From Chiloscyllium plagiosum (taxonomy: Eukaryota): DNA of 61,890 nt. Under the pieces are notes generated by a model. The model was not told the DNA's origin, searched no databases, and saw only the letters and a list, made by a program, of their open reading frames with translations. The stretch spans positions 1,557,476-1,619,365 of the forward strand of contig NC_057756.1 of the NCBI RefSeq assembly GCF_004010195.1. Reading direction: 5' to 3'. Shown here in pieces: positions 1 through 53,494 of this stretch. Position 1 is the stretch's first letter; the number at the start of each line of letters is the position of its first letter. Position numbers and translations under genes: made by a program.

Positions 1-2098
1 TACATCCCACACGGACTCTGGAGCACCTTTAAACCAGCAGAGTTCGGACCCGAACAGGACAAACAGTGCAGACTATAGTTTCAAAAACACCAGCAACGGT
101 TGTCCTTCAAGATCCTCCGCTCCACGCTCGCAGCAATGCGCCGGCACCTAACCTCTCTACAGTCAGCCCTGCCTCAGTTGAGGGCCACACTCTCTCAGAA
201 TTGCAAAGGACCCACTCTGTACTACATCCTCAGGAGAATTCATACTCTCAACAAACAGTATTTCAACTCCACCTCAAACATCAAAACTGTAAGTACAATA
301 AACTTTTATCTACCCATCTCCATAACCAGCGCTCCTCAAACATTCCAGAAGATTCCCACAGCCTCTGGAACTGCTCGGACGCCATTAGCCATGCGGCTGG
401 TGCAGTTGCCGCACCCACGCTGATTGATGATGTCACTTCTGCTCCCATCATGGCCACTCCCACAGCCACTTCCGCCCCACACAATTCCTCATGCATCACG
501 CGTGACATCACTTCCGCCCCTCACATCATCGCGATGTTACATGCTCAATGACTTCCGCCACCCCGACTGCCATGCCCGCCACCACTTCCACCCCCACCAA
601 CACCACTCACCCTCATTCTGCTGACACGCCCCCCACAGATCACACTGTCACCAGTCCCGGCCCCCAAAACCCTGAGGGGAACACCACCCCTGCTCATGAC
701 TCCACCCCCATTCTCCCCACCATCACAACCACTCCAGTTACTGGCTCCGCCCCCACTCCCAGCTCCACACCCACACCAGATCCCAGCTCCCAGCCCTGCT
801 GAGTTTTCATCACCCCTCCATGGCCTCCCCCTCACTGAGGACGAACGATCAGTCCTCAGCAAAGGACTCTCCTTCATCCCCCTACATCCACGCATCAATG
901 AATTTAATACAAGCCGTGACGTAGAAGACTTCTTTCGCTGCCTCCACCTCCGAGATTTCTTTCACAATCAGGCCACCTTCCGAGGACCCCTTCGCCCACC
1001 TCCAACACACTGCATGCGCCTGGAAACCCCACGCTGGCCTATTACCTGTCCTCAACCTCTTCATTTCCAACTGCCGCCGGGACATTGACCGCCTCAACCT
1101 GTCTACTCCCCTCCCCCAATCCAACCTCTCACCCTCACAACCTGCAGCCCTTCAATCCCTCTGCTCCAATCCCGACCTCACCATCAAACCAGCAGATAAA
1201 GGGGGCACAGTGGTAGTCTGGCGGACTGACCTCTACACCGCTGAAGCCAAATGCCAACTCGAGGACACCTCTACCTACCACTCCCTCGACCATGACCCCA
1301 CCCCTCTTCACCACACCATCAACCCCCAGACCATACTGAACCTAATCACCTCAGGAGATCTCCCACTCACAGCTTCCAACCTCATAGTTGGGAACCCCAC
1401 ACTGCCAGGTTCTACCTCCTTCATAAGATCCACAAGTTTGACCACCCTGGCTGACCCATTGTCACAGCATGCTCCTGCCCCACTGAACTCATTTCTCGAC
1501 CCTGTCCTATCCCCCCTAGTCCAGGATCTCCTCACATGCGTTCGAGACAACACACACGCCCTCGACCTCCTCCAAGACTTCCGTTTCCCCGGCCCCCAAT
1601 GCCTCATCTTCACCATTGATATCCAATCCCTCTACACCTCCATCTGCCATGACCAGGGCCTCCAAGCCCTCAGTTTATTCCGCTCCCGACATCCCCAACA
1701 GTACCCTTCCACCGATACTCTCATTCGTTTGGCCGAACTGGTCCTCACCCTTAACAATTTCTCCTTCGAATCCTCCCACTTCCTCCAGACCAAAGGGGTA
1801 GCCATGGGCACACGTATGGGCCCCAGCTATGCCTGTCTCTTAGTTGGCTACGTAGAACGGTCGATATTCCGTAATTACACCGGCACCACTCCCCACCTCT
1901 TCCTCCGTTACATTGATGACTGCATTGGCACCACCTCGTGCTCCCACGAGGAGGTTGCACAATTCATCAACTTCACCAACACATTTCATTCTGACTTTAA
2001 ATTTACCTGGACCATCTCTGACATCTCCCTCCGCTTCCTGGACCTCTCCATCTCCATTAATGACGACCGACTTTACACTGACATTTTTTACAAACCCA
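1..2098 (+). mobile_element. Penelope-like retroelement ORF (N-terminal region + RT), disrupted, runs into gap
   Basis: Translations give SVLSKGLSFIP, IKPADKGG, FTIDIQSLYTSI, QTKGVAMGTRMGPSYACL and FLRYIDD, typical of PLE RTs; stops/frameshifts split the ORF. Confidence 0.9.
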
Positions 2099-6930: not shown

Positions 6931-8090
6931 CAAAGATGATGAATGTTATTTAACATATAGTACCGAATTATTTTACAGTGTTATTTGTTTTCTCTGCAAT
7001 CTATGGGTATTCTCCCCATGTGCAGACTTTCAGTTAATATAAGTTACTGGTTGGATTGATATTTCATTATGACATATACTTATCCTTATGGATGTAACTT
7101 TTTATCATTTTAAAATAAACATTCCATTTACTGCTTAATGTTTACTGCAATTAACTACTTACAACTCTATCCCAACAATTCCCTAACAATAGTAACTAAA
7201 CACATTTTACACAGCAATTTATTATCTAAATTATACTTCTGCATAGATATAATGCAGTTAATTTAAGATTCCAAAATATCATTGAATGACATGAATTTTA
7301 CTTATGGAAATGAGTACCAGAGAATATTAAAGTAACTTGCAATGTCACAGATATAGAAGGTGCAACGTGGTCAAGAAACCTTGGTATATTTCGATTATTT
7401 TATTATAACTAACACCTGAAATCTGTCTGGGATCAACAGTAAAGTGTTAAACTTAATTTAGAGTCTGCACTTCCTATTTCGCAACTTTTGTTGTCATTAA
7501 CTCTATATTCTTATGAGCCTGTTACAGTGATTGAATTCAAACAATGTCTTCTGATATACATGCAAAAATATCCCTAGTTCATTGTTAATAATACAAACGT
7601 GATGCATCATGGAGTCATGAAAGAAAATCAGATCAGACAGAGAATGCGCAATATGCTAGTAGTTGATACTGTGAGAAAATCGTACTTAGTGTTTCATTTC
7701 TGTTATCACAATTTATAATTGGAGCATTAACAAATACAAAGAAATGGAAAGGAGGAGGGGCAACGAACAATAATTGCATTTTTGATGCATAATTAGTTAA
7801 CAAAAGTGATAATGTTGCAATGACTCGAAATATGAACAATGACATAGAGAAATTCTCGAGGATAAGTACAATAAATGAAAGCAGGATTACTCACAACAAA
7901 TGCAGTCCATATTGGGGTGGGGGGGGGGGGGCGGAGGGGGGGTGAAGGCAAATGGAAAGAGCCTTCTTCTATGTTTATTTATGATAAATGAAAATGAAGA
8001 TGAAGCAACTATTCAGTCAGATGCAATCTAATCAGGTCAGATAAAAAGAAATACTCAAGAAAAATATTGAGCAAATTTTGGAATGCATAC

Positions 8091-8117
8091 CTTTCTCCTT
8101 ACTTCTCAGTTTTTGTT
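8091..8117 (-). CDS. Micro-exon, 27 nt: EQKLRSKEK
   Basis: tttag|AACAAAAACTGAGAAGTAAGGAGAAAG|gtatgc; phase 1; similar to the 18590 exon (KLxxKEK). Confidence 0.8.
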
Positions 8118-9154
8118 CTAAATTTAATAAATAAGAAGTGTTATTGACATAAATGTGAAAATGCAATATATCCACAATAACTATTGCTTGAAACAACAGG
8201 CCGATGTATGTACATATCAAATTAAAACACAATTCTCGTGTTTCTTGAGTTCTGGATTACTTTATCTTCGTCATTAAACTTCTGAAATGACAATAATTGA
8301 TTTGTAGGACTTGTGAAACAACTGAGAATATCTCAATGATCATGTTAAAATATCGTGCAGCTGCCGTTTCGCTACTTTGCTAAATCATATATTCAGTCTA
8401 GGTTACGAATCTCATTTTACGCATGATTAACATACGGTCATAACTTTAATATGCATGAAGCAATGGACATGTAATTATGCAGAACGGAATTTTTGAAAAA
8501 AAAAGAAACAATTTGCAAGTATGCTTTCTTCACAATTTTTGTCGTTTCTGTAGAAGTTACGAAAATGACATTTCTTCCACAACAACTTGAATGTTAACAA
8601 AAAAAAGTTTTTTCCTTCGTGTGGAAACTTTTACGATTCTGTAGTATTGTTTGGTTGTGTGCCCGGTTCAAACAACGTTTGTACCCAGTTCCAGCAAAAC
8701 ATTTGAATTGCATAAACTTTGAAACGTTAAACCAGAATAAGAAAATAAATTTTCTCAATACTAATACTTGATTTGTTAAGACATGAATGCTCATTATATG
8801 GCTGGCCTTTTGTTTTCCCCCGCTCTTCCGATGGACCATTTATAACTTTATCAATCAAAATTTTATCCAGTTTTATCTTGAAAATATTCAATAAACCTGG
8901 TTCTGGTGGGTTTTCTTTTTTTTTGGGGGGGGGGGCGGGGGCAGAGAGAAGTCTAATGACAGACAACAGAGAGAAAGAAAAATAAGCAAATATTTCTCTA
9001 AAATAGTCCTCCTTATTTTTCGAAGCTCTCCATTCCAGAAGCATTCTCGAAGGGAAGTGATATCTTAGTATCCACTAAATGAGGTCTTTCCATCGTCATC
9101 CATTTTCAACAGATCACCTTTCACGCTTAAAAAATGCTTCAATGGATTAAATAA

Positions 9155-9470
9155 TCCCTACAATGTGGAAACAGGCCAGCTAGATCAACATGTCCAAACC
9201 GACACTCGACAGAGTAACCAATCCAGACCCATTCCTCTACCCTATTGCTCTAATTTATCCCCCTAAACAATGTACCTAACCTAACACATCCCTGAACACT
9301 ATGGGCAATTTAGCATGTCTAATTCACCGAAACTGCATATCTGTGGAGCCCTCAGTGGGTGTCCATGCAGACACGTGGATAACATACAAAGACAGTCATC
9401 CGAGACTGGAATCCAACCCAGTTCCCTGGTTCTGTGATGCAGCAGGGCTTACCACTTAAACACTGTACCG
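9155..9470 (-). mobile_element. HE1-type tRNA-derived SINE (decayed)
   Basis: Aligns by eye to 59545-59850 (GGGCAATTTAGCATG core, GTGGAAACAGGCC tail). Confidence 0.75.
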
Positions 9471-9989
9471 GTAACAACATTATCATTCAAATGCATAAAT
9501 AAAATGCTCAAATCTAGAACGACAGTACATATTGTTCAAGTTGACCTCATACGATGAACTCTCCACCTATAGTAATTATTGCAGAGACGACTCTCAAATC
9601 AGATTTAAATGCATGCAACGGCTTTGCCAAGTCACTGGAAATAAATTAAAACTGCTATACATAATGCATAAATAAAGAACAAAGAATTTAAAAAATTACA
9701 ACACAGGAACAGCCATTCACCCTCCTCGTCTGCACTGATCCAGATCCTCTGTGTAAACCAGTTGCCTATTCTCTAAGAATCTGTATCCATCTGCTCTATG
9801 ACCATTCGTGTACCTGGGAGGAAGTGAGGACTGCGAATTCGGGAGATCAGAGTCGAGAGCGTGGTGCTACAAAAGTGCAGCATCAGAGGAGCAGGTGAAT
9901 TGATGCTTCAGGCGCCGGCCCGACATCATCATTCGTACTTATATATGACATAAACTGGGATCTTCATTAACCCTGATTGCTTAAGATAT

Positions 9990-11820
9990 CTCATGACCCC
10001 TTTTAGTACTCTTAATTCCTCGTTTCAGATTGGTCCTTCTTTCCCAATATTCTTCCAAACCTTTGTCTGTTTTCTGTCACCGAGACCTTACATATGCTTT
10101 CTTTTGCCGCTTAGTTGGTCTCACAATTTCATTTATAATCTATGGTTCCATAATCTTGCCATTTTTAATCCCTCATTCTCAACGGGGCATGTCTGTTCTT
10201 CACTCTAATCAAACTCCCTTAAAAAACCTCCCACATAGCAAATGTGGATTTCTATTCAAACAGCTGCTTCAAATCCACATTCCCCAGCTGCTGCCGAATT
10301 TTGCGATCATTAGCCTTCCCCAAATTTAGCACTATTTATTTAGGACCGTCTTGACATTATCCATGAGTATTCTAAAATTTACGCAATTATGAAGACTATT
10401 CCCAAAGTAATCACTTATTGAAAATTCAGACATGTGGGTGCGCTCTATCACACGTTTCCTATTTCTGAGCTCTACTAATATTGTCTCACTGTTCGAGTCC
10501 TCCACAGTGCCCTCCGCCAGCAAAGCTGCCATATCCTCTCTGACCAGTAATGCAAAACCTCCACTCCTTTCATCTTCCTCTCTGTCCCGCCTGAAGCTTC
10601 GTTACCATGGGATAATTAGTTGCTAATCATCCCTTCCCTCAACAAAGTCTCAGTAATAGCGATAACGTCATATTTCTAGGTAATAAATTAAACCAAATAT
10701 CATCTGCCTTACCAACTACACTTCGGACATTAAAACAACTGCACTGCAAAGCCCCTTGTGTCTTTACAATCATCATTTGCTCCCTGCCTACTCTTCCCCT
10801 TTGTCACGTTAACTTCATTTTTTAGTTCCTGCAAAGCTTCAATTACTACCTCCTTACTGTCCACTAACTTCCTCAATTCGTTTTCATCCCCATGCCACAT
10901 TAGTTTCAACCCGCACCAACAGTGTAAGCAAAAACACCTCTTCAGACCTTCCTTCCAGTCTGGCCCAGGCTTGGCACATCCAACTCGTAAAAGTCCCAGC
11001 TCACCCAAAATCAGTCGCAATGTTACAAAAATCTGAACACCTTCCTTCTGCATCATATCTCAAGCCACACATTCATCCTTCCTATTGTTATATTTCCAGC
11101 CTGATGAGTATATAGCACTGGTAGCATGCTGAGATTACTACCTCTGAGGTCTTACTTTTTAACTTTGCTCCTAACTCGCTGAATTGTGTGTGTGGACCTC
11201 ATCTCATTTTTCTTAAACCTATATCATTGCTGCTTACATGCATCAAGGCAGCTGGCTGCTCATCCTCACCCTTCAGGATGTTATGTAGCAGATATGAAAC
11301 ATCTCTGACCCGTGAACCTGGGAGGCAACATACCATTCAGGAGTCTCGTTAAAGGCATATACACTTCCCTTGTAATTGAATCCCCGATGACTGTAGTCTT
11401 TCCACTCTTTTACCCTTAATTCTGTACTGCAGAGCCAGTTACGATGCCATGAACCTGGCTGCTGCTGACTTCTATTGGTGAGCCATCACTACCACAGTAT
11501 GGAATACAGTATACCTGCTTTGGAGGGATATGACCGCAGAGGACATCTGAAATGCCTTTCTTCTCTTTTTCTGTCTTTTATTTATCTATTCCTTCTCTCC
11601 CTCAGAAATTAGAATCTACAGTATTACTAATTCGCTAAACGTTCTATCCATGACCCCTTCAGCATCAAGGATGCTCCAAAGTGAGTCCACGTGCAGCTTC
11701 ATAGCTGTAATGCAGTCTAACAACAGCTGTAACTGGACACCTTTACTGCACGTGAAGGAGTCAACACCATCAACAGTGTCCCCCTGAGTTCCCACATTGA
11801 GTAAAATGAGCACAACATGG
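9990..11820 (-). mobile_element. Decayed CR1 (ORF1 + endonuclease, internally deleted)
   Basis: SETILVELRNRK, GNSLHNCVNFRILMD and ORF1-like LQLLLDCI...VMDRTFSELV remnants. Confidence 0.7.
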
Positions 11821-12544
11821 TGAGGCAGTTTTACAAATGGAATCAAGAATGGCTGTAAATTGTAAATGGGTCGTGGTGCTTTGGGGTAATATGGAAATTG
11901 GTGTATTCAGTTAGGAAAGATTAATTGGCATCACAAGGATGTAGCAATATTTCAAGAGATTGATTGAAGTGACTATCATTACTGTAGAACTTATCAATCT
12001 TGTTCAAAACACAGGAAAACATTGAAACCAGTGGAATTCACTAAACAGTTTGAAGCTAATTGAATTTGTTCCAATCAAGATCTTCATGAATCTGACGGAA
12101 CAGGAAATGACTGAATCCAAGTTACATCAGATCACTAACACCAACAAAAATGCATCCTGTTGGTTTCAAATGCTCATGAACAAAGTAATGTTATTTGGTA
12201 ATTTTACCCAGTTGCAAAATATGGTTTTGTCGATACATTTTCCTCTCTGCTCATGAATCTCTTAAGTTCATTTGTATGTAAGTAAATTATTTTGATTTTG
12301 TTATGAATCGGAATGATCTTTCATGGTTCCAGAGGGTGATACTGTGTACAAAAAAAGTACATGAACTAATACCACGGCATTGAAGATAAACCTCAATTTT
12401 GATTGCTCATATTAACTGGGAAGTACACCTTCATTATTTATAGCTTACGTACACCGTTTGTGCGTGCAACTGAAATACTTTATTTTCCCAACAATTTCAT
12501 ATGGTATCCTTAGAAATCTGATATAAGCTCTCTTTTTTGTTCAC

Positions 12545-12580
12545 CTGAATCTTGGCAAGTTTCTTTCAAAATTTTCTGTT
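12545..12580 (-). CDS. Micro-exon, 36 nt: EQKILKETCQDS
   Basis: ttttttgttcaatatcag|AACAG...GATTCAG|gtgaac; paralogous to the 15905 and 19674 exons. Confidence 0.85.
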
Positions 12581-14478
12581 CTGATATTGAACAAAAAACA
12601 AGTTTCAATGGGTAAAGCCAACAGTTCTTAAACTGTTAAACAATATACAAAAATATTCTGAAAAGCATCTATAAGGAATTTGGCCAGACAGACGCCGAGA
12701 TTGTCCCATTTCATTTGTGACATTACTGAAGATGCAATCACTTAATCATTGAACATGAAAAACGTACTTGGATGAAGAAAAAGAAGAACATTCTCCTTTT
12801 TCAGATTCAACACTGGTTCTCTGGCAGTTGCGAGTAAGAGCGTTGTAACATTGCTTTTGCTTGTGTGTCACTTTTTTTTTATCATGATAGTTCTTGATAA
12901 GTCTTTCTTAAACTGGCCATTCGAGAAACAGACTTCGACCAATGGAATGTGCTCCTTCTTAGATGGAATCCTTGTTGTGATATAGTTCTAAGTATTTTAT
13001 TTGTGAATCTTGTTTTTGTTGCTTAGTGTTTGATATTAGTGCTGGCAGAACTTAACTGAACAATTATGCAAGCAATGTGAGGGCTACAAAAAGCCACAGA
13101 CGAGGAATACATATGTGCTCTCTTAACAGAATAAGACTTTACAGCAATTCTGATAATGTGAGCAAATTGTAACTATATCCAATAATTTTATTACACTTGA
13201 AAGTTCGAAGATAATATTAACATATAACATAATCACTCACTGGAAAACAAATGAAATCCGCTGACGCATTTAATGGATGGAAAGTTATCATTTTAACTGT
13301 AATAAAGATGTGAGCTTTTCGATGAACCAAAATGGCTGCCACTCAAGCGAAGCTATCTTTCGAAGCCATTATGTAATAACCCATTCACCGGTGGACAATA
13401 TCTAAGTGCCATATCGCTAAGATACATTATTTTCATCAACACATGCCCAATGAGTCTCCATATGAATAATTTATTCCTGCTGTAATGGAGTGCTGTTACT
13501 GTATGTTCCACTGAACTTTTAAATATCCTTCCATTCGGTCGCATGTATATATAAGTTTCACATTTGAAGCGTTGTGCATGAGGTCATCATATCTCATGAT
13601 AATATTTATGAATTTGACTGCAAAGGTGGAAATGTTGGATTGATAAATGGGAAGAAGTTCTCATGGTACCAAAAAAGCATTATCTCCAGAATCCCCCACC
13701 TCGCCAACCTGAGGTTGCGAAAGAACATGTATTTAATTTAAGTTGATAACATTCACTGCCTTGACCAAACTTGGAAATTAATTGTTACCGAAAATGAACT
13801 TAAAACATTCTGCATTGTCCTGATGTTCATAGTAGGTCAGGTATCACATTCAGTTATTTCATAATCGAAAGAACAAAATAAATATGGGATGTGGAAACAG
13901 AGACTTTTTTTAAAAAAATGCATTGTTCGACCTCTCACAGACTGCTTTACATCTAAAGAAAAGTGTAGCCGGATGATAAATAGGCTGAATTAACTCCATT
14001 GTGCTAAACACTCTAAATTGTCTTTAAAGCATTTAGTGAAGTGATTTGCTTATTTTAATTTAAAAGATAAAGAACATATGTCGAAAACATAATCCTTTTT
14101 ACATGATTTACATGACACAATCCCCAAGCTGCTGGAATGAGGACTGGGATGTTACATTCGTTTCTTCACTGGTATGCATGTATTACAACCCCAAAGTACA
14201 TCTTCGTCAATGCAGTTATCTGCTGCAAAGAGTGTCAAGGTCCACATTCCAAACGCTTTGTAACTGATGCGTGATGTTCTGAATTCCCCAAATGTTTTAG
14301 AAAAACTCTCCAATTTTCAAAGGCAATTTTCTGGGCCTCTATCCAACAGCACCATAGCGTACATGTCAACTCTCCTGAAACTCTGAAATACGTTCCAACT
14401 TTGATTGCGTAAGGCACAGCTGGTTCTTATTCAGAACAATGATCAGGCACTTTCCAGATTCAAAAGGAAAATATTTAC

Positions 14479-14505
14479 CATTCGCCAACCTTTCCACAGC
14501 GGCCT
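14479..14505 (-). CDS. Micro-exon, 27 nt: EAAVERLAN
   Basis: ttaacag|AGGCCGCTGTGGAAAGGTTGGCGAATG|gtaaat; keeps the heptad register. Confidence 0.75.
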
Positions 14506-14919
14506 CTGTTAATTGCAAAGGGAAATGAAACATATTTTAAAATATGAAACACAGGCAAGTGTTAGCACAAGATGCAGATCATTTACATTTGCCACGGGGT
14601 ATATATGCAGTCCATTGTCCACTCAATTAAAATTTTGATTAAAATTGCAAAAAATAATTTTCATTATGAAAGCAGCTTAAATCAAATTGTCATCCCGCCA
14701 ACATTTATATATCAAGATCCTCCGAAATCCTGTCTCTTGTTATCATTAAACGTGATTTTTCCAGCAATGATGGTAGTGTCATCAACAGTTCCGAATTGCA
14801 GATCTTTGATTCAATCGCTACAGAAACAAAACAGAATAATTACTTTTGTATGAGACTAAGGTACACCATTAGTCGTCAGTACAATGCACCGAATGTACAG
14901 GAACAGAGCCAAAAAAATC

Positions 14920-15725
14920 GTAAGATCATAAGAAATAGGAGCTAGAGTAGGCCATCTGGATGATCGATCCTGCCACGCCATTCAATTAACTCATAACTGG
15001 ACTCGTGGACTCAGCTCCACTGACCTGCCCGTTCACCATGAAACATAATTACTTTTCTGATCAATAATCTATCTATCGTTGCCTTAAAAAAAATCAACGC
15101 GGTAACCTGAACAGCTTCATTAGGCAGTGAATCCTACAGATTCACAGCCCTTATCTGAAAAAAATTCTTCTCCATTTAGTCACAACTTTGCTCACCATCA
15201 TATTGAGACTATACCACCAGTTATGGTTTCATGAGCCAATGAAAAGAAAAGCTCCTTACATTTGTTTTATCCGTTCACTGGATAATCGTATAGGTTTTTG
15301 CAAGTTTCCACCTCACATTTTTCGAAATTCCTGTGTGTGCATTCCCGTTGACTTAATTTCTCCACATAATTCAACACGCTCAATTCCGAATTCAAACTAT
15401 TGAACCTCCTTTGCATCCCCTCCGTGCAAATGCATCCTTTCTCAAATAAGGAGACCAAAACATTCTTTAGTACTCCAGTGTGGCCTGACGATCGCTGTGT
15501 ACAAATACAGTATTACCCTTCTGTTTTTAAACTTCATCCCCCCCGAAATGAAGAACAATATCCCATTTGCCTTCTCAGTTACCTGCTGCAACTGCAAACC
15601 AACTTTTTATGATTCCTTCACAAGCACATCCATGTCCCTCTGCTCAGAACACTGTAATTTTTCACGAATTGAATAACAGTCCATTTTGCTGTCAATCCTA
15701 CCATAATTGATGACTCCACATTTAA
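14920..15725 (-). mobile_element. Decayed CR1 3' region
   Basis: Tail taagaaataggagc...gtaggcc; EGMQRRF remnant. Confidence 0.7.
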
Positions 15726-15904
15726 CACAATCTCCTTTGAGCCATCACCACAGTTTTATTTCATTTAAACCACATCTCTACTTTCATTATGCTTCAGTAA
15801 TATTTTTGAAGAAGACAACTACTTCTATTTTGGAATTCATTCTAAGATTTCTCTTTCTAAGACTGTAATTTCTTATTCCATGTGCTTAGCAACATGATTC
15901 TTAC

Positions 15905-15940
15905 CCGTGTCTTGGAGATTGACCTTCAAGGCGTTTATAT
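15905..15940 (-). CDS. Micro-exon, 36 nt: DINALKVNLQDT
   Basis: ctttcatcacag|ATATAAAC...GACACGG|gtaaga. Confidence 0.85.
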
Positions 15941-17921
15941 CTGTGATGAAAGGGACAACACATGAATTTTGTTGGGTCCGACCATCTCAGATTATGACTT
16001 TGGCTAAAGTGGAAGAATTCACGTTCACGCGATGAACTGTTTCATGGAATATGCTCCAAAAATTTGAGTGTTTAAAAAACCTAAAGGAAAAACGAGGTCT
16101 TGAACAGGATTAACATGTCAAGAATGGTTACAAAACATTCCTCAGTAGGTGATATTTACCCGATTACATCAACTTGCTTGAATGGAACAGCAAGTAGCAT
16201 CGAGAATGTAACTGTGAATCATGTTAGTTTTCACCTGTTTAAGTCCAGATAGAATAAAAATCCAATACAGTTCCGTCAAATTTGCAACAAGAGTATGCTG
16301 GGCAAGACGTCTTCCTTTCAAGACTGGGAACACTTAAGCTGGCACTGATGAGAAATAAAGAAATCACAAAAAAACTCTTAAGTTTCTCTATTTTGTTTTG
16401 AACCATATTCCAATGAAGGTTCCCCAGCCTGGACAACGTGCATGAACTAAGATGCAGATCAAAGCAAAGTACATACACACCGGACATATATATTTGAATG
16501 GCGCCATGTGATATATAATATTATAAGCATAGCACTGTCTCTAAAACATTACATCGAAATCATATAGGCGAGATAGGTTGAATGTGTAGCTGTGCAAGTT
16601 TGAATTTGAGTATTGAACAAGTTATACGTTTCACAGATTTTCAACTGTCAGGAGTGTAAAAGGGTATAAGATGCCGTGTAGATAGGTGTGCTATCATCAA
16701 TTAAAGGTGTTGTGTTAATAGTGAATAATAGAATGGGGTTAGTACTGTCTGGTAATAGCGGCATTAATGTAGGTTGTCAGCAGTGGACGATAGCTTACTG
16801 TCGATTGGTGGATGGATGAACTGGTGTGTTGGGGAAATTTCGTTTGAAAATGTGATATTATCGGTCAGCTGTTAGCGTCAGGGCTTTGTCGATGAGCAAA
16901 GAAATATGTCATTACGAAGGAATGTGTTAAAGTGCCTGCGATAGAGTAATATGATGATGACATGCAATGTGACATAGGATATCTTAGTTTATTCTCAGAT
17001 ATCAAGGTGCAGGGTCAGGCTGCATGGTTTTGATGATATTACTGAGTTAGGATGAAAAAAATACAAAATAGTTGATCAGAAAATGTCGATGGTGAGGTTT
17101 CAAGTTTTCAAAATGCAAAGTTCTCTTGCACGTTTTCAGAAGGTCTTTTCTGTAACATTTCATGCTGGGTCGCAGATCAAAATGGGATAGATTGTAACAT
17201 TTCTAATGGTCTATTGGTGAAACAGATTAGCAGCCTACCTGGGACTGAGCTAAAATGATTGTAGATCATTGTCATGTCGCTTATGTAAACCGTTTAATCA
17301 GTGAATCTTGCTGTTTTCACAATTTAGCACTTCCATTTATTGCATCAATGCAGCATTCCAAAGTATTGACTCCAATGAATAATACTGCAGTTTAACAGTA
17401 TTTTGTTTCTCATGAGATCAGTTGGACTATCATGCCACATTTTAATTTTTGCTGTTTGTGAATTCAAATCACAAAAATGAAAGATTCAATGCATTCTGTC
17501 TCATAACGGTGGATTGCTTTACAGCCACACCACACATTTGCAGCAGAGTGCTGAAACATTATTGGTATGAACAAAACATTCATTACAAAACAACTTATTG
17601 AAAGCCGTTCCACAGTTTCTGTTCCTTATCACAAGGCTGGTTCAAACATGCTTTTGAAAGAATAGTGGCGTGAACCACTATGGTTCGGCTGTAACAGACA
17701 ATTAATAAACAATATACAAATACAAATTTATCAACGTCATGGATAGTGATCAAATTAATGGCGCATGCAATCATTAACGCATTAAATAAATAAGTTAGAA
17801 CCTTCTGCTTATTCGAAATCGTTGTGCCTGTTTGATTATGCTTATAGTTATGGTGTGATTGCACATATTTTAGAGAAGGAAAATACATAACTTCAGAGAA
17901 AATGTTAATGCATTTTCCTTT

Positions 17922-18255
17922 TGGGGCATGGTGGCTCACCGCTTAGCACTGCTACCTCATAATACCAGGGACTTGGGTTGAATTCCTGCCTTGGTTAACT
18001 GTTCGTGTGGAGTTTGCACATTCTCCCCGTGTCCGTGTGGATTTCCTCCGGGTGCTCCAGTTTATTCCCACAGTCCAAAGATATGTAGGTAAGGTGAATT
18101 GACCATGCTAAATTGCCTATAGTGTCGGGGCATTAGTCAGGAGCAAATAAAAGGTAGGGAATGGGTGGGTGGGTACTCTTCGCAGTTTCGATGTGGACTT
18201 GTTGGGCCGAAGGGCCTGTTTCGATACTGTAGGTAACCAAAATTAATCGAATCTA
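17922..18255 (+). mobile_element. HE1-type SINE
   Basis: GGGGCATGGTGGCTCA head with A/B-box remnants, GTGTGGAGTTTGCACATTCTCCCCGTG core, CR1-like tail. Confidence 0.85.
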
Positions 18256-18589
18256 ATCATAACAGGAGCAGCTGGAAAAGTCCCTTAATTATGAACTTAT
18301 TGTGATTGAGAAAATGACCTCGAAGATGTGCCTCGACTAAAGTATTCTCCTGAAACGCTTCCATATTTTCTTTGTGTGTATGTGTGTCAATGACATTAAT
18401 GCTATCGTTAAGAACAATAAAAGAACGAATGTGTCACTGTTTTTGCATATCCAACCCATTTTAAATAAATGTAAATCACATGTAACTTTCAAAATTGATG
18501 TTGACGTCCATAAAAAACTATTATTTTAAAAAAATTATCTTTGCATACAATTTAATAACATAAATTATATTTCCGCATCTTTGACTTAC

Positions 18590-18616
18590 CTTTTTCTTTC
18601 TGAGTCAGTTTAATAT
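18590..18616 (-). CDS. Micro-exon, 27 nt: DIKLTQKEK
   Basis: ttccatttgttag|ATATTAAACTGACTCAGAAAGAAAAAG|gtaagt. Confidence 0.85.
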
Positions 18617-19673
18617 CTAACAAATGGAAATGGAGTGAATGTTAAGTACTCAAGTAAACAAATATGACTGACAGATTAGGAGCAATTATTGAGAAAAATC
18701 TTATTTAATGCAACACAAATAAATTCACAAATCCAATAATCACACAAGCGAATTATCCAAATTCCAGTTTATCAAGATGTTTCTGTAATAACTATCTTGC
18801 TAATTTCAATGAGATGTTGCTGGTGCTTGAAGTCAAATGAAAGCAAAATTATGTACAATATCCTGGTTTGGGTTTGGTTAAAATGAACGTTAATGGAATC
18901 GTGCATGGGGCTGATTGGTACCGAAAAAAAACTTATTCAGAAAATGGCTTGCATAAGGTTAAGTTTACATTGTAAAATGGGACATGAACTATCTTTATTA
19001 AATTCTGAGAAAAGTTTGGCTACTGATAGGTATAGTCAACTATTGATGCATTGTGAATGTGAATTTCCATGTTGCCCGTTATGTTATGAAGTGGTTCAAA
19101 GATATAAAAAGAAAACAAACACAAGAAAATGAAGTCTGGTTATAGAAAAGAGGAAGACAAAACACAGAGCCGTGGAGTTTCACTAAACTAAATGGTATCA
19201 CTAAATGAAACTGAAAATAAATCATCTGATGCTTAGAATCGTAATTCAACGTTCCATTTGGAAGTCAAAACGCTGACGTGAACCAGCAAGTAATACATAG
19301 TCGAAATAAGTCATTCTAGCATTTCTGATTTCATGAGGCAATGTACTCGGTTTTCACTCTATTCATTCGTCACAAGTATATTTTCTCATCATCATTACAG
19401 CGATGTACATCCTATTCTTTATACTATCTCAGAATTTAAAACTGAATCAGTAAAAGTAAATGAAAGCCACATCAGAGAAGATGCATTCTTTCTGTGAGCT
19501 GTGCGGCAGCATATACTTTTTTAAACGAAAAATAATGTTTTTTTTTAAGAAGAGGAAAACAAACCAATAGCTTTTCCCTTCGGAGCATGAATATACAAGC
19601 ATATGGATTTTAGCCAAAAGTTGAGCAATGTTGAAAACACAAGGAAGATCGGGCTCATGAACTGAAACCTTAC

Positions 19674-19709
19674 CCGTGTCCTGCAGAGTTTCCTTCAAAA
19701 TCTGTAGAT
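19674..19709 (-). CDS. Micro-exon, 36 nt: DLQILKETLQDT
   Basis: tactttcttaag|ATCTACAG...GACACGG|gtaagg; same exon end and donor as the 15905 exon. Confidence 0.85.
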
Positions 19710-22167
19710 CTTAAGAAAGTAAGTATTAATAATGAAAATAATTCAATTTCACGTGAACATACTTTTATAAATTTCAGGCTGAGGAGATGTACTGCATGCA
19801 AGTTTCATGTCACTAAGCTAAAAAAATTAAAAAAATCAACTCTGAATAGACAAACGACTTCTGAGGCACAGCGGATTCATATTCATTTAAATTATAATTG
19901 CCGAATCAATAAATTCAACATGCAAATAACATCATGACTTGACTGCTGGAGTTATCCATTCACATTTTTGTCATATCTAGAAGAAATGTGAGGTTGAATT
20001 TGATATAGATTGAACAACCACCTCGATGTCCACAAACAATAAACTTCATGTTTACTTTTCCTTAACTGAAATAATATGATTAAAATTCTATTAATTATTT
20101 AGATATTATTACCATCTGAGGAGCATGTTTAATTATACTGTCTAACCTGTAACCAATTGAAAGTACTTGCATCGATCACGTTTTGGTGCATTATTGATGT
20201 AATCATCCTTACTTTCTTGGAACATTAACTACCATAGTTAAAAGCATTCGTGTATTCCATTAGTTTAGCCTTGAAATACAAAACCTAGCTCTGCACGTCC
20301 ACGTATCACACAAACCTTGAACAATCTGTTAAAAAACAAACCTGTACTGTGCTATTTGAGGATGAAAGAGAAAGTGAGGACTGCCGATGCTGGAAATTAC
20401 AGTCGAAGATTGTGGTGCTGGAAAAGCACAGCCGATCAGGCAAGATCCGAGGAGCATTAGAATCGATGTTTCTACCATAAGCCATTAATTGAAATGACCA
20501 GCATGACATGTACTTCGCAGCATAGCATAAAATATTCTGCACGATTGCAATTCAATTACATTCTTGATTTAGTATTATCCTGTTTTATCTCAAAATGTTC
20601 ACAATTCGTTGAGCACTTGCTTCTTTTATTCTTATAAACGTTTAGGAATCGTTACTGAGTCCAACTTGAAGTTACATTGTTCAATACTTATCGGCAGCAT
20701 TTTGTCTGGCAAATACGATAATGCTAGTTTACGCCTTCCTAAATTACTAATTTTCTTTTAGCTCTGATGAGCTCAAATATAACTTTTCTTAAGTCATTCT
20801 AGACTCAATCATGAATTGCAACAATTATTACATAAGATGTGCTCTCTCAGTCGCATTTTTTTCCATAAATATCAAACTAACTTCAAAGATTATCATTAAG
20901 GAAGAGAATTGAAAACCTTAAAGGTCCATCAAAGCATAGCTGTATCCACCTTAGAAATTAATTGAAAGGAAGTCACGCTTCTTTGAGGACTTCGCTACTT
21001 TTAGTGCTGTTGATTTCTGAAATCGATTTAAATTCCATTTCAGTAAATAAGAGCATGTTAAAATTCGGGGCAAATCAAATTTTTGTACCAAAAAACAACA
21101 AAAAAAGCACATTATGAGGAGCAGCATTGCTCGTTGAATAGACACTGCCCTCAAACAATTATAATGTTATATAAATGTTGAAGGATCTTCCATGTCCAAC
21201 ATTTGCTTAAGCACACAAGGCACAATCCATCAGACCATAACGGAATCTTCGTCAGACAAGATGCCTTGAAGGCAGAAAACTCATCCGGAATCAGATGGCC
21301 TAAGAGACCTTGGAGTTTGTTGGTTCTGGTCAGACTGTCGTTAAAGAGTAGATAAATTCAGATAGGTTGAGTGGACTAAACAGGTTGACTATAATCTCTG
21401 TAATTCTAGCTTTGTAACTTAGTCAAATTGAATTGTGAGTTTTCTGGTGCTTGCTACATGAATGCTTAGCTGGTATTTGAGTGATTAATTATCAATATCT
21501 GGATCAGCTAAGCTTTGGTATGTGCTTGGTGTTATTGTCCGCTGTAAAACGTGTCTGCAGCTGTATTGTGGAATGGCACGAGAAAAAAAAAGATTTCAAT
21601 TATGTAATATTTCCTAGCATTTTTCATGATGTATTGCAGATCTTCACAACGTCAGTGTAAAGCAATTCTGAATTATAATATTGAGAAGGATTTTGTTGTG
21701 CACGGGAATTGTTCATTTGATAATGAAAATTCCTGTTCAATTTCTATGCAGAGCATGGCGTGAGGGTATCAGAATGTCTCAGCATGAATTTTGCTTGTAT
21801 ATCCAATCGTTGACCAGAATATGTGGCTCATACGTCTTCTCTATCATGAAGATCTAAAAAAAAACTACCTGAAATATCTGATAATTCTTTAACTCAAAGT
21901 ATGACAATGCTCCACACATATAAAATAGTCCTTAAATTTCCTTTTGTTAGTCAAGACCACTGAAAATTAACTGACAATGCTATATTCTTGGCTCGTTTCA
22001 TTCCTTACTTTTGTTTGTCGAGATTCCTCCAATGTTGTGTAATTTTCCAATTTTATCCAGGATCTATCCCGCAAATGCAATGTTATTTGTCTTGATCTCT
22101 CTACTAGAACTTGCAAAAGACAATAATGATGAAATATCATCGATTCTGTGTGAATTGCTGCGCTTAC

Positions 22168-22194
22168 CTTTCAGTTTTTCTTTGAGGAGGGTCT
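22168..22194 (-). CDS. Micro-exon, 27 nt: ETLLKEKLK
   Basis: gttttgattag|AGACCCTCCTCAAAGAAAAACTGAAAG|gtaagc. Confidence 0.85.
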
Positions 22195-23169
22195 CTAATC
22201 AAAACATAATTAAAATCTAAGTGCATATTTATGTATATTTTGTGCACTGATCCCTGTCAAAACATATTCAGAACTAGCATAGATTCAACACAGAGAAAAG
22301 AGTGAAAGTGAGAAACCGGGCCAAGAATTTTGATCTTGCAGCCAACTGTCGAATATCGAAACCTTAATTAAAAACTCTGCTCGATAATTGCAAGACAACT
22401 GGAAATAATATCAGCAAAATAAATTGCAATACATCTACATGAATTGATCTTACGATAGTTGAACCTGTTTCGTTATACCCAAAGCTGGGTTGCCTTTATT
22501 TTGAGAAGGTGCAGATTAGTAATGTCGAAATAAAACAAAGTCTCAGAGTATCAGGTTAGAAATGAGTTGTGTTGGAAAACGGTGACTGCTTCAAACACGT
22601 GTGTAAAGATCCATACACCAGAGCCAAGAAACTTTAGAGTGTTGTGCGTAGCATAATAAGAAATGAAGGTTAACTTTAATTACAATTGATTGATATGCAT
22701 TGTTGTTACGTAACAATTATGTAATTTCGAATTTGGGTCAAAAATGTAGCTGACACAAAGTTAACCGCTAGGGAGAGACAATATGGATAATGTGCTTTTT
22801 AAATAGTTCAATGCTTCAACTAAAGGTTGACTTTCTTTCCGTGTAATTTCTGGATAAATGAGAATGTATTTTGACATAATTTAGAGGGCTTAAAATATGT
22901 TGAACTCAAAGAATTTTATGTAATTATCAAAACGTCACTGGACAGAAAGATTATGTATGGAAATACAAGACTGAGTGTATAACACGAGTATACCAACTCA
23001 ATAGACACGATGTAATCAATTTACTGTCCAGATTTTTAACTAACATGCCAGTAGTGATGCTACTATTCGTAAATAATCATTATAATCAGAGCAATTCGGA
23101 TGTTCAAATTAATACTCATATTGGCAATAGGGTAATTTTGATAATTATAGTATTCTTATAACGAGACTG

Positions 23170-24150
23170 AGTTCCTTCCAGACTCAAGCACTTGTGCATC
23201 CGACGTTGGTTGTGGAGAGTTGTTTTTTCATACTGAACGCCTGTACCCAGCAGAATTCCAAATCTATTGATGTTGGGTCGACTGTTGTTTGTCATTGACA
23301 TAAATGATTTGGATCAGAATTCAGGAGGCATGCTTAGTAAGTTTGTGTATGACGCCGACATTGGTGGTACAGTGGACAGTGAAGAGAGTTATCTACGGTT
23401 GCAAACGGACCTAGATTTATTGGACAAATTGGCCGAGGGCTGAGGGCTGAGACTAAGTTAATTTGGATGAATGCAGAGTATTACGTTGTAGTAGAACGTC
23501 GAAGGGCAAGATTTATACAGTTAATGGTAAGGTCCTGGGTTGTGTTGTCCAACAGAGGTACATAGAGATTCACTTACACAGGTCTTTCAAAGTAGCATCA
23601 CAGGTATACAGACAGGTTACTTAAGAACACATTGAGCATGTCTACATTCACTGCGCAAACCATTGAGTATCGTCATTGGGAAGTGATATTGATGTTTTGC
23701 AGAACATTGGTGATGCCTGCTTTGGAGCACTGTGTACAATTCTAACCGTTCTGCTATAGGAAGGTTATCATTAAATTCGACAGGTTTCGGAAGGAGGAAA
23801 CATAGATTTTGCTGGGACTGGAAGGTTTGAAGTACAAGGAAAGGCTGGGTAGACTGGGACGTCTTCCACTTGAACGTAAGAGCTTTAGGAGTGACCTTAG
23901 AAAGTTGTAAAGACGTCATGAAGGGAAAAGTAACGGTGAATAACAAAGGTCTTTTTTCCTAGCAGTAGGAGGTTCCCATCCAGAGGTCGTATATTTAAAG
24001 TGAGAGGAGAAACATTTGAAAGGGAATGACGGGCAACTTTTCCACAGAGGCTGGTTCGTATGTGCAATGACTGCCAAAAGAAGCAATCGACTCAGTGCAG
24101 TTCCAGCACTTTGGGGAATTTCAGAAAGATATATGAGTAGGAAAGATTCA
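23170..24150 (+). mobile_element. Decayed CR1 RT/3' region
   Basis: Remnants of LLFVIxINDLD...GMLSKFxDDxxIGG; homologous to 49950-50440. Confidence 0.8.
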
Positions 24151-25095
24151 GATGGATTGAATTGAATTTATTGTCACGTGTACTGAAGCACAGTGAAAAG
24201 CTTTATTTTACGAGCAATAGAGGCAGAGCAAAGAGTTAAGTAGAATAGATAAGTAAACAATAGGTAAACAGCGGTTAAAAAATACCCCCAAAAACACAGG
24301 TAGACGCGAATGTTAAGAGATTGTCAATCCATTCAGTATTTTAAAAACAGTAGGGTAGAAACTGTTTCGAAATCGGCTGGTGCATGTTTTCAGGTTTCTG
24401 TACCTTGTCTCCGATGGTAGAGATTGCAGAAAAAACTTTGCCAAGGTTGGAGAGATCTTTAAGAATACTGGCGGCCTTTCCTTGACATCAGACCTGATAG
24501 ATGGATTCTATAGATGGAAGATTGGCCTTTGTGATTGTCTGGGCTGAGTTTACCACTCTCTGTAACCGTCTCCGATCTTGAATAGTAGAGTTGCCATACC
24601 AGGTAGTGATACATCCAGTCAGAGTGCTCTCGGTGGCGCACCTATGAAATCTGGCCAGTGTATTTGCTGTCATGCCAAACTTCCGCAGCTACCTGAGGAA
24701 GAAGAGACGTTATTGGGCCTTTGGAACCAATGCATCCACATGAAGAATCCTAGAAAGCTTGTTGTGGATGACAACTCCGAGGAGCTTGACACCCTCCACT
24801 CGTTCCACCTCTGTGCTGTCCATGTGACATGAGTAACATCCACCGAAAGTCAATAATGATTTACTTGGTTTGCCTGCATTCAGAGCTAGGTTGGTCTCAG
24901 TGCACCATTGTCCCACATCTTCCACTTCCCGTCTGCAGTTTGTTTCGTGGTTATATGAGATTCGATCGACTATGGTGGTGTCATCAGCAAACTTGTAAAT
25001 GACATTATTCTGGTATTTGGCGACGCAGTAATAGGTATGCAGTGAGTACAGTAAGGGGCTGAGTACACACTCCTTGGGTGCTCCAGTGTTGAGTG
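24150..25095 (-). mobile_element. Rex1/Babar-like LINE 3' part
   Basis: QWCTETNLALN, GCITTWYGNSTIQDRRRLQRVVNSAQTIT; (TTGAA)n tail on + at ~24156. Confidence 0.8.
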
Positions 25096-25982
25096 TTAGT
25101 GAGGATAAACCTCAGTAAAATAGTTAAATCTGGGAAACTTGGTCAGTGTTGGCGAGGCGGACCAAAGAGTCTGTTTCTGTGTTGTATTACTCAAAGACTC
25201 TCGGACGTAAGTTCTTTCATTTGACAATCTCAGCATAATTGTAAAAAGTGGCTTGTTTTCATGTGGTTTCTTTAGCATCTAGGTTTACACTTTGTACGCA
25301 GCCTGATCTTACTGAAGTAGCACGAAGTATCACATCCGTCCATTCTTTATACAGATAGTTAATTCCTACAATGTTAATTGTATTATTATATTTGATAAAT
25401 TTCCAAGAAGGAGTATACATGGTATTTCGCTGCATGCCATCGGTTTTGCTTAGCTTCAAATTGCACCAATAACACGTAGCACACAATTCAAAAAACATTT
25501 TTTTAATATATATTGTTAATTTTACGGACAGCGATGTTTTTAATCTCCATGAACGCGTTTTGAAAGCTAATTCTGATGCTTGTAGCTTTGGTTAGTTGTG
25601 ATTTCGAAATCAATGGTGATGAGTATCTTGCTGATGAAACTTATAACTATTGCTGCAATGAAAATAGTAAAGTGCATAACTCTTCTACTGAGTGCATTTA
25701 GGGAATAATTGACAGTGCAGAAAACTATCGAAGAATGCCTACGGAGAGAATGGCGACCGGGTCAGTGTGGGTCATTAAAATGTTTTTTTTTTCCCTCATG
25801 CTGATAACTATTTCGAGGTTAATGTTTCCCTAGAATTATAGCGCTCACGATAGTCATTTCATTGCATTAAATTCAGTCGACTGCTTTAAGGGAGAACAGA
25901 GAATGCTCTTGTTTGAAAATAGCGCACATATATATACATTTCAAGTATTTCTATGGAAATTCGAAGTTGAACAAACACTTAC

Positions 25983-26018
25983 CCAGTTTTTGGCATTCGT
26001 CCCTCGTTTTCTCTAATT
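25983..26018 (-). CDS. Micro-exon, 36 nt: ELEKTRDECQKL
   Basis: aatacag|AATTAGAG...AAACTGG|gtaagt. Confidence 0.8.
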
Positions 26019-34190: not shown

Positions 34191-34217
34191 CTCTGAGCTT
34201 CTCAAGATTCATTTCGT
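34191..34217 (-). CDS. Micro-exon, 27 nt: DEMNLEKLR
   Basis: ttaaacag|ACGAAATGAATCTTGAGAAGCTCAGAG|gtgaat. Confidence 0.7.
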
Positions 34218-35045: not shown

Positions 35046-35063
35046 CTGCCTTTATCTTTTCTT
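35046..35063 (-). CDS. Micro-exon, 18 nt: EEKIKA
   Basis: Strong T-tract ...ttattttcaatataacag|AAGAAAAGATAAAGGCAG|gtaata. Confidence 0.7.
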
Positions 35064-36312: not shown

Positions 36313-36348
36313 CTAACTCAGCAATGTTCTTCTGCATAGTTCGTTGCG
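36313..36348 (-). CDS. Micro-exon, 36 nt: AQRTMQKNIAEL
   Basis: tacttttcag|CGCAACG...GAGTTAG|gtgagt, both sites near consensus; first residue depends on the upstream exon. Confidence 0.8.
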   Translation of the reverse strand, partial: RNELCRRTLLS

Positions 36349-37777: not shown

Positions 37778-38189
37778 CTGCACAACAACGTTTTGTTCTC
37801 TCGAGTTACAACTGCCACATTTGCATCCGGACCTTCCACCTTTGCATTTCAATCTTTCTTTTATCGGCAGCACATAATCTCAATGAATGTACACAACCCA
37901 TAAATCGCATTTCTTAAAGTTCTATTGCAAATAATAAAACTTCCCATTAACTACAATTCTCTGTTTCCTATTTCAGAGTATTTTATCCAAGTCGCCATTT
38001 ACAGCGATATCAGCAACTTTACTTTTCTCACAAGTCTGAAGTAAACGCTATTTTGAAATGCTCTTTAAATTTCGTTGTCCATGATTTCTGCATCGCTATT
38101 CCATTTTGTGACTTCCATATTCAAAAGAACAGCAAACTCATGTTTTTCCTCCATGACAAATTTGGTAATAAATGTACATCCGAGTAACT

Positions 38190-40114
38190 ACTAGTTGATT
38201 GATTCGGTGCAGCTCTGATCTCAAAAAGTATAAATGGAACGCCTGTATCCCAACATCTGGATAATCATGACCATAAACCTTCAACATTGTCTCTAGGTTT
38301 CGTGCCATCTCTCCAAAACACCCTGCAATTCCGAATGTTATGCAGTAGATTTGTTTTACTTTATTCCCATGTTATCCATAAGCACCTTGTATAGTTTGAT
38401 TGTGAAGATTGATGCTTTTTCTGACTAGATCTTTATTTGTATACCGTATCTAGTTAAAAAAAAATTAAATTGTTCTCCAAACCTTTTGTCTGTGATTTTC
38501 CATAATGGGATTATCTTTGGAAATCTAGGCGGATCATCTGTTATCGCTAATAAATAGTTATTCCACTTTTTGTTTGAGAAAGGGGATCTGTGTAATCAAG
38601 CCTAACTTTAGAGAATTGAGCACGTTTTGTTTCACAATGAACTCCTGTTACAAATAGCTTCTCTGACGGTTGTCCCTCAGGAGTACATATCTCCTCATCC
38701 TTTAGTATCAAAGACTGAGACGATCCTCAATTCCTGAACATTGTAACCTCCTTGCATGCTACTGCTGGCCTATGTGAATAAACTTTAACCTTGTATGTAT
38801 ATTTTTCAAGCAGATCTGGCACTTCTTCCTTAATCAGCCTCTGATAATCTTGTACACTCTGGGGCGGATCTCTAAATTCCCTGATGCTCTACTAAAATAC
38901 AAATTAAAACAAAATTCCCAGGCTTGTTGGTTTTCGTACCTCTGGCTTTCTAGTCGCCCACTGACACAGTGATTTTGTGTGTCCCACTTTTTTTAATGGA
39001 AACACTAGAGCTTTTAACTTCTTTGTCTCTATTTTTTTCCCACTGTAGTAAGTTATACTTATGGTCTTCAGTGAGATCTACCTTTCCCTTTCCACGTGAG
39101 GATTTCTGTTTGCCACATTTTCTATCCCTCATGGAGTGAAATAGATGCTGCACACCAAACCGGGTTTTGTGGACCAACTCATTGTCATCATCGTGTGAGC
39201 TGCTAACCTTGCTGTTTTAGCACTCAATTTTTACAAATGAGTTCGGACTACTTCAGGCAGTGAATTTTTGAATTATTCCAAAATAATTCCCACTCTAGGG
39301 GCGTCATAGGTTTTGGTTGACTATTAAGTGTCTAATCCCTCTATCGAAACTTCTCTATGTGATCCTTTCAATCTCAATTCAGATTTGACCTAGATCCCTC
39401 AGAAGATTCCAGAAACATTGTCAATTGGCTTCTGTTATAAGTTCATATGCACTTAAAATGACTTATTTTCACCTCCTATACTCGGCAGGTCTCCTCCGAT
39501 CGTGTTGCAAATACCTCACGAGCCATTTTGTTTTTGATTGCATCAACAAAACACAGATTGCCACTGGCCACTGCATTGATTTAGCCAGCTTTTCAAAAGC
39601 GATGAGAAAGGCTTCCACTTCCTCTCATCAAATTTAGGCAATGCTTCAACATACTCAAATATTTTCTCAGTGGGCTTCTGACTACCTGGGGCTTTCTCCT
39701 CCTCACTCGCTTCCTGATGAAGCCTACACTCAGTCTTTGTCTCCAGATGTTTAAGATGAATTTCCTTTTTAAGTGTCAGTTTTTGAAGTTCAAAAGCTCT
39801 TTCTCATTCTTTCTCTTCTGCAGCTCTATTTTTTCCTTTTCTGCTTTTGATCGCAACTCAGAATGTTTTATTTCTGCTGGCCTTTCCCAGTCTCTCGTTT
39901 CTAACTCAATCCGCTACATTTGCAATAGAATTCTTGCCATCTATATGGATTCTGATGTTTTCTCCAGCAAGCTTATATTCGGGGCTACTGCTGTAAGTAT
40001 TTACGCTTTACTGACAGAAGCAGGCAGTTCAAGGTCCAGTTGGTCTGATATGTCCCATAGCTCGGTCTTGTTCATTTTTTGGCAAAAACTTCCAAAGTCA
40101 ATGCATCCACTCCG
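38190..40114 (-). mobile_element. Ty3/Gypsy LTR-retrotransposon relic (gag, protease start, integrase core), internally deleted
   Basis: gag PKFDE..VEAFLIAFEKLAKSMQWP (~39560-39640); protease FRN*GSSQSLILKDEEICTPE (~38680-38750); integrase KSGNNYLL...RFP..IPL..TRYG...HSELQGVLERWH (~38290-38570). Confidence 0.85.
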
Positions 40115-52890: not shown

Positions 52891-52928
52891 TACATTTTCA
52901 TTCTAAAATAATTGCTCTCTTCCCTCAG

Positions 52929-53494
52929 TCCCACCGAAGGGAGACATGGTACGGCTGATCCGACAGGAGGAGGAGGAAATTGTAGTGGAGGGGCCTGCCC
53001 CCGTACCCTCCAGAGGAAGAGGAGGAAGATTGAGCGACCAGGATGGGCGGCGCCCCCGGCACCAGTGCGGCATCTGCGGCAAGGGCTTCCTGCACCCGTC
53101 GTCAGTGAGGACCCACCAGCGGGTGCACACCGGCGAGAGGCCGTTCCTCTGCGCATCCTGCGGCAAGGCCTTCAAGCACCTCTCCGAGGTAACCGTCCAT
53201 GAGAGGGTCCACACGGGTGAGAGGCCATTCGCCTGCGGCATCTGCGGCAAGGCCTTCGTCAACTCCTCCAACCTGCTGACCCACCGCCGGGTCCACACCG
53301 GCGAGAGGCCCTACAAGTGCACCGTCTGCGGCAAGGACTTCACGCAGTCTGGCGAGCTCAAGAAGCATGGACGTGTCCACACCGGCGAGCGGCCCTACAA
53401 GTGCACCGTCTGCGGCAAAGGCTTCACCCGCTCGCCCCACGTCAAGCGGCACCAAAGGGTCCACACCCGGCACCTGGGCACCGTGACCCTCTGA
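52929..53494 (+). CDS. C2H2 zinc-finger protein, five fingers, no KRAB/SCAN/BTB seen
   Basis: Five intact CxxC-12x-HxxxH fingers with four TGERP linkers, high GC3, acceptor ctcttccctcag at 52928, in-frame ATG at 52946, TGA ends 53494. Confidence 0.95.

Follow-up and report, generated by a model that had tools for sequence, protein, structure and literature searches.

Butyrophilins (BTN and BTNL proteins) carry IgV and IgC domains and a transmembrane region, and in their genes a B30.2 exon comes last, preceded by a few heptad exons that are very short, as set out in the available portions of the sources (PMC6790196, PMC8813856, PMC12841164). Chicken BG genes, according to the accessible parts of two further papers, contain between 13 and 36 exons that are 21 nt long, or in a few cases 18 or 24 nt, together with an IgV and a transmembrane exon, and are described there without a B30.2 domain (PMC4046983, PMC5938342). 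Here, we analyze a micro-exon locus in the cartilaginous fish Chiloscyllium plagiosum. The stretch of DNA under study (the window; 61,890 nt of contig NC_057756.1; G000:C47:1557476-1619365) carries a series of minus-strand exons that, judging from sequence, are likely to be a middle slice of one gene of ~790 kb. Our reading, to which we assign a probability of roughly 0.7, is that ~148 phase-1 micro-exons form a single cartilaginous-fish gene of this size, that they encode a coiled-coil rod of ~1,470 residues that tethers a B30.2 domain, and that the rod grew in blocks. A preliminary description of the window, centered on pairs of 36-nt and 27-nt exons, had missed that these exons are part of a giant B30.2 gene; the present analysis puts that pair idea to a quantitative test and adds a probable extent of ~790 kb. 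Positions are counted from the start of the window, and a sign marks those outside it.

Micro-exons and a terminal B30.2 exon

Such micro-exons extend from +528,800 to -258,212, a span in which ~4.4 kb of rod-coding sequence is divided among ~148 exons. The working set of 148 comprises 87 exons of 27 nt, 52 of 36 nt, and nine of other sizes, with 21 nt represented once; 134 exceed the score threshold, and 14 that are weaker or odd-sized were added by hand. The median intron is 3.1 kb and the largest, which contains zinc-finger genes, is 84 kb; 72 of the ~148 exons lie on the window's side of this interval. An open exon situated 260 kb past the window (C47 1297146-1296623, minus strand) terminates the array; it is SPRY by Pfam (E 4.3e-15) with no Pfam PRY match and has an acceptor in frame and an intact B30.2 frame. 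For a B30.2 profile built from this exon and two paralogues, the top PDB matches were BTN3A1, TRIM21, and pyrin, about equal, with BTN3A1 best (E 1e-28) by a small margin over the other two. We infer that the micro-exons and the B30.2 exon are spliced into one mRNA.

The micro-exons are not chance. When 788 kb was scanned for splice signals only, 27-nt and 36-nt intervals accounted for 70 and 46 of 353 candidates on the minus strand and for 10 and four of 282 on the plus strand. Stop codons in the phase-1 frame occurred in three of the 70 27-nt and three of the 46 36-nt minus-strand candidates; in the other two frames, they occurred in 30 and 35 of the former and in 38 and 20 of the latter. 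A family profile trained solely on two paralogous genes, from which all exon scores below are taken, called 130 exons on the minus strand, four on the plus strand, and one in 274 kb outside the array span.

A scan of the window itself identified eleven minus-strand, AG/GT-bounded exons between 36348 and 8091, each starting and ending one base into a codon (phase 1), with sizes of 36, 18, 27, 36, 27, 36, 27, 36, 27, 36, and 27 nt in order (Table 1). The preliminary description had named the last eight. Its five quoted peptides are present where it placed them, in AG...GT phase-1 exons, and the exon end GACACGG followed by gtaag is, as it said, common to the exons beginning at 19709 and 15940. 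The order of four consecutive 36-27 pairs is solid for seven of the eight exons, with family-profile scores of 11.9-20.3, but the sixth, 14505-14479, fails the profile at -3.9. This 27-mer is a plausible, unproven exon because its splice sites are usable, it is the top-scoring AG/GT 27-mer of an intron for which the chance expectation is ~0.02 such 27-mers, and it fits the heptad register, with Val and Leu on positions a and d.

Other exon-like pieces lie nearby on the minus strand. One of 26 nt (26755-26730) has a good acceptor and donor and an in-frame stop and is possibly a decayed 27-nt exon; a charged nine-residue stretch (22034-22008) stands beside a strong donor without an acceptor AG and may be a decayed exon or chance. 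Thirteen of the 148 exons, including that at 35063, start with NAG, and such tandem acceptors could add or drop one residue.

Table 1. Exons of the rod gene in the window, listed in transcriptional order, and the paralogous genes
Feature	Position	Strand	Remarks
36-nt phase-1 exon	36313..36348	-	score 7.9; first one 3' of the 84-kb zinc-finger interval
18-nt phase-1 exon	35046..35063	-	interrupts 36/27 alternation; 15-nt counterpart at the same position in the sister block 77 kb downstream
27-nt phase-1 exon	34191..34217	-	score 7.5
36-nt exon, 12 residues	25983..26018	-	score 15.0; heptad a/d at 2, 5, 9, 12
27-nt exon, 9 residues	22168..22194	-	score 11.9; heptad a at 4
36-nt exon	19674..19709	-	score 16.0; 69% identity to 15940-15905
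27-nt exon	18590..18616	-	score 20.3
36-nt exon	15905..15940	-	score 15.5
27-nt exon, divergent, doubtful	14479..14505	-	splice scores 3.0 and 2.0; family score -3.9; claimed alternation depends on it
36-nt exon	12545..12580	-	score 12.1
27-nt exon, last in the window	8091..8117	-	score 16.1; array runs on 260 kb to the B30.2 exon
Paralogous rod-B30.2 genes	L103, L104 (C47); L105, L106 (C37)		

Heptad register and probable growth of the rod

The rod predicted from the 148 exons has 1,474 residues, five prolines, and a strongest local period of 3.5. A 36-nt and a 27-nt exon together encode 21 residues, exactly three heptads, as the preliminary description had recognized; these heptads are in register, with hydrophobic residues at positions 2, 5, 9, and 16 of the 21-mer and at 11 of the 12 'a' positions in the window. 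Across 41 pairs of a 36-nt and a typical 27-nt exon, positions 2, 5, and 9 are hydrophobic in 88-95% and position 12 in 32%, the hydrophobic residue at position 16 being set by the class definition. Intervals of 21 residues between 36-nt exons are the commonest module (26 of 51), and the remaining 25 include nine of 30 residues, four of 48, and three of 39. Exons of 36 and 27 nt alternate at 91 of 133 junctions compared with 63.2 ± 5.5 in shuffles (p 1e-4), in runs of up to 13 exons. The alternation is not strict, as had been claimed: the three exons at the upstream end of the window measure 36 (36348), 18 (35063), and 27 nt (34217), and gene-wide 37 of the 133 junctions join two 27-nt exons and five join two 36-nt exons. 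Of 120 typed steps, 90 leave the register unbroken, twelve shift it by +2, and eleven by +4, a count of breaks that missed exons would inflate. In coiled coils, +4 is a tolerated stutter and +2 the most strained insertion, with beta-layers formed in trimeric coils, according to the part of the source available (PMC4786415).

The preliminary description took a strict 36+27 cassette to be the unit of duplication, with regulated skipping of pairs setting rod length. Several results are in keeping with such a cassette, including the three in-register heptads of the pair, its share of the modules, the excess of alternation, a long alternating run in one paralogue, and the 74-89% identity of the 27-nt exons that follow the three most alike pairs of 36-nt exons. 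The same young duplicates carry a third exon too, however, and the clearest of them, at +217 to +262 kb, are blocks of 36-27-27 and longer (alignment score 22.2 compared with at most 7.3 in 60 shuffles). Gene-wide, the similarity of 36-nt exons hardly predicts that of the following 27-nt exons (Mantel rho 0.115, p 0.065; rho 0.005, p 0.47 in the reverse order), and the 27-27 junctions and nine exons of other sizes also count against a fixed pair. Within the window, the claimed paralogy of the 36-nt exons is borne out for 19709, 15940, and 12580 (mutual nucleotide identity 53-69%, shuffle p <= 0.001) but not for 26018, which is just 44-47% identical to the other three, the gene-wide mean being 45.7%; that of the 27-nt exons at 18616 and 8117 agrees with their identity of 59% (p 0.009). 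Although 19709 and 15940 are mutual closest relatives, at 69%, the 27-nt exons that follow them are only 30% alike. Residual intron homology, which the preliminary description had proposed to look for by self-comparison, was not found around any of the 148 exons in comparisons of flanks and of the window with itself, which yielded just overlapping flanks and short repeat-like matches.

Models from relatives point to variation by single exons rather than pairs, with the qualification that their isoforms are predicted and that micro-exons are easily misaligned. Leaving aside the N-terminus, the internal differences between database isoforms belonging to a single release amount to 6 and 9 residues in Narcine, 9 in Scyliorhinus, and 9 in Callorhinchus, so that all four differences are of single-exon size and none is of 21 residues. 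Between two releases of the long Callorhinchus model there are 12 gaps; eight span exactly 9 or 12 residues, and no gap spans 21. Tuning of rod length by pair skipping thus finds no support in these predicted isoforms, and we regard the strict cassette as quite unlikely to be correct.

Since all exons are phase 1 and a multiple of three in length, duplication or loss of any block leaves the reading frame intact. The rod is likely to have grown by unequal crossing-over in blocks of two, three, or more exons, and the 36+27 pair probably dominates because it adds three in-register heptads. Modules of 30, 39, and 48 residues would place fixed breaks or hinges in the rod, and selection for heptad register would favor the 36+27 core while tolerating occasional break-forming modules. 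Exon skipping, if it occurs, would be a by-product of the symmetric-phase design rather than a demonstrated regulatory dial.

Relatives of the rod gene

Closest in the genome are four other B30.2 exons, two of them on C47 (42% identical) and two on C37. The 100 kb upstream of each contains 27-nt and 36-nt exons of these types, and one C37 gene has mostly 27-nt exons. In L103, three near-identical 21-nt exons lie directly before the B30.2 exon. In a midpoint-rooted tree of 38 rows, the five genome domains group with eight others in a 13-row clade (support 100/100) separate from the 25 remaining rows, which include TRIM proteins and two V-set-bearing proteins. The eight others are six named models from chimaera, ray, and sharks and two from further assemblies. 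Family models include Callorhinchus XP_042192744 (named 'nuclear-pore anchor-like'), Leucoraja XP_055510696 (placed in the clade through its cluster representative, P0025), Narcine XP_069775384, and Scyliorhinus XP_038672306. The Callorhinchus model, of 1,697 residues, combines a rod with a clade-type B30.2 domain and has an exon-profile score of 147.8 compared with 67.9 ± 16.0 when shuffled; in the five family models tested, the rods score higher than shuffles against the exon profiles of 9 and 12 residues. The majority of family models represent a short 3' fragment, bear TRIM-like names, and lack RING and B-box.

No paper on a rod-B30.2 family was found in the open-access literature, as judged from titles and the beginnings of abstracts. 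A search of long proteins with the B30.2 domain of P0005 (Callorhinchus) returned P0005 and P0006 alone, the N-terminal 330 residues of P0005 had no usable match in the ESM Atlas, and the N-terminal 394 residues of P0006 matched nothing in the genome or in the sequence stretches compared. The first 25 residues of P0005 form a short hydrophobic start followed by basic residues, without Ig, and could be a signal anchor or a prediction artifact. In P0004, a model from the turtle Carettochelys, near-identical charged repeats of 14 residues lie between two B30.2 domains and are possibly an independent two-heptad expansion.

As in butyrophilins, heptad micro-exons precede a terminal B30.2 exon, and BTN3A1 is the top PDB match, but the available descriptions give butyrophilins few heptads where this gene has ~148 exons and a rod of ~1,470 residues, and its B30.2 domain belongs to a separate clade. 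Chicken BG and zipper protein, in the accessible parts of their descriptions, share with the rod gene a long predicted coiled coil made from many tiny split-codon exons, a copy number that varies between genes, and heptads that cross exon junctions (PMC4046983, PMC5938342). The BG exons described there are of 21 nt and encode one heptad each, whereas the rod gene has a two-exon, three-heptad core of 27 and 36 nt; BG has IgV and lacks B30.2, whereas the rod gene ends in B30.2 and no Ig was found from -300 to +762 kb. TRIM proteins also have a coiled coil followed by B30.2 (PMC8813856, available in part), and the PDB matches to TRIM21 and pyrin are almost as good as that to BTN3A1. The rod gene differs from them in a coil of far greater length, encoded by micro-exons, and in a B30.2 domain that falls outside the TRIM B30.2 groups of the tree, and no RING or B-box was found from +500 to +762 kb or in seven family models. 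A TRIM identity taken from the top matches, P0002 and P0003, was rejected; these are fused two-B30.2 TRIM models whose scores sum two domains.

Extent, N-terminal end, and meaning of the gene

Two scaffold gaps of 500 N and C2H2 zinc-finger genes on both strands lie in the 84-kb interval, which could divide two genes or reflect a scaffolding artifact; the window's gene would then begin near 36 kb and comprise 72 exons over ~300 kb, and the array from +120 to +529 kb would be a separate gene lacking B30.2. Strand and exon types are, however, the same on both sides. Exons +123178, +120443, 36348, and 34217 have counterparts, in the same order, in a sister block downstream (ranks 5/86, 2/86, 8/51, and 3/86), and this ordered match across the interval favors one gene. 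A motif search between the two arrays found no second B30.2 open reading frame, nor was a start-like or terminal domain exon found there. We consider it likely that the rod gene continues across the zinc-finger block and is ~790 rather than ~300 kb long, and a division into two genes or an artifact unlikely. The zinc fingers, at 52907-53494 (plus strand) and from about +65500 to +83200, would be nested genes or a misplaced block. A decayed Gypsy-like retroelement occupies 38000-42700 (minus strand) and is interrupted by the gap at 40115-40614, two LTR-like copies that are ~77% alike lie at 41150-42670, and a retroelement fragment with reverse transcriptase is found at 925-2097 (plus strand).

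At the N-terminal side, the rod could be the cytoplasmic tail of a butyrophilin- or BG-type receptor whose IgV (and IgC) and transmembrane exons are further upstream or in a gap. Butyrophilins, as far as the available portions of PMC6790196 and PMC8813856 describe them, have the same arrangement of phase-1 heptad micro-exons ahead of a B30.2 exon, BTN3A1 leads the PDB matches, if narrowly, and the two C37 paralogues lie on the contig that accounts for most C2-set and B30.2 matches. Such a receptor nonetheless seems rather unlikely. The 233 kb above the first exon yielded no Ig, transmembrane, or RING exon, no Ig match was obtained in the 1.06 Mb from -300 to +762 kb (best E ~1, with a C profile built from one sequence), there were no transmembrane-like candidates on the minus strand upstream of +529 kb, and a pattern search from +500 to +762 kb detected no RING or B-box. 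A Pfam scan of seven family models revealed no Ig, RING, or B-box, and in the tree the B30.2 domain stands apart from the two V-set-bearing proteins. It is very improbable that the array is a dead gene or a noncoding relic of old duplications. That no RNA was seen would fit a relic, as would one stop-bearing 27-nt candidate and the 26-nt exon-like piece, but stop depletion is confined to the phase-1 frame, 15 of 27 differences in the six closest exon pairs fall at third codon positions, the B30.2 frame is intact, and family models exist in chimaera, rays, and sharks.

Several points weigh against a single ~790-kb gene for a rod and its tethered domain. No transcript of the rod gene was seen; RNA runs X5, X6, X7, and X1, on 7500-17900 with four exons, gave no splice joint at any exon and are evidence neither way, the 76 X5 reads falling nearly all on dispersed repeats and X6 giving 0 reads. 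No 5' end or anchor was found within 233 kb upstream of the first exon; the 14 hand-added exons have lower scores. Lysine occupies position 19, the d position of the third heptad, in 29 of the 41 pairs, so the coil may be loose, and the inflation of register breaks by missed exons has to be reckoned with. The family rows of the B30.2 tree were chosen by similarity to the query. The zinc-finger interval is flanked by the two 500-N gaps, the sister blocks were picked by eye, and their outer three pairs rank poorly (51/51, 53/86, and 37/51). The retroelement cut by the gap at 40115 does not resume beyond the gap at +109157, a negative result that decides neither for nor against a misplaced zinc-finger block.

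In the single-gene reading that we favor, the rod would act as a spacer or tether: chains would wind into a parallel coil and keep their ligand-binding B30.2 heads far away from a putative N-terminal anchor, so that the rod would resemble a much-elongated butyrophilin or BG cytoplasmic tail. A bolder and improbable extension makes the family an Ig-less, undescribed cartilaginous-fish branch of the butyrophilin/TRIM B30.2 superfamily, in which ~150 micro-exons over nearly a megabase would serve as a parts kit for a rod of ~200 nm, a length that rests on the standard rise per residue. The 36+27 pairs would then be rigid three-heptad segments, lone 27-nt exons would be hinges (nonad or stutter breaks), and tissue-specific choice of exons would set the reach and flexibility of B30.2.

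The architecture of this gene is extreme, and databases hold such genes mostly as fragments under misleading names. It would extend the heptad-exon design of butyrophilins and BG to a two-exon, three-heptad core in the oldest lineage of jawed vertebrates, with at least five genes in this genome, and it offers a natural test case for asking whether exon duplication and splicing are constrained by coiled-coil register.

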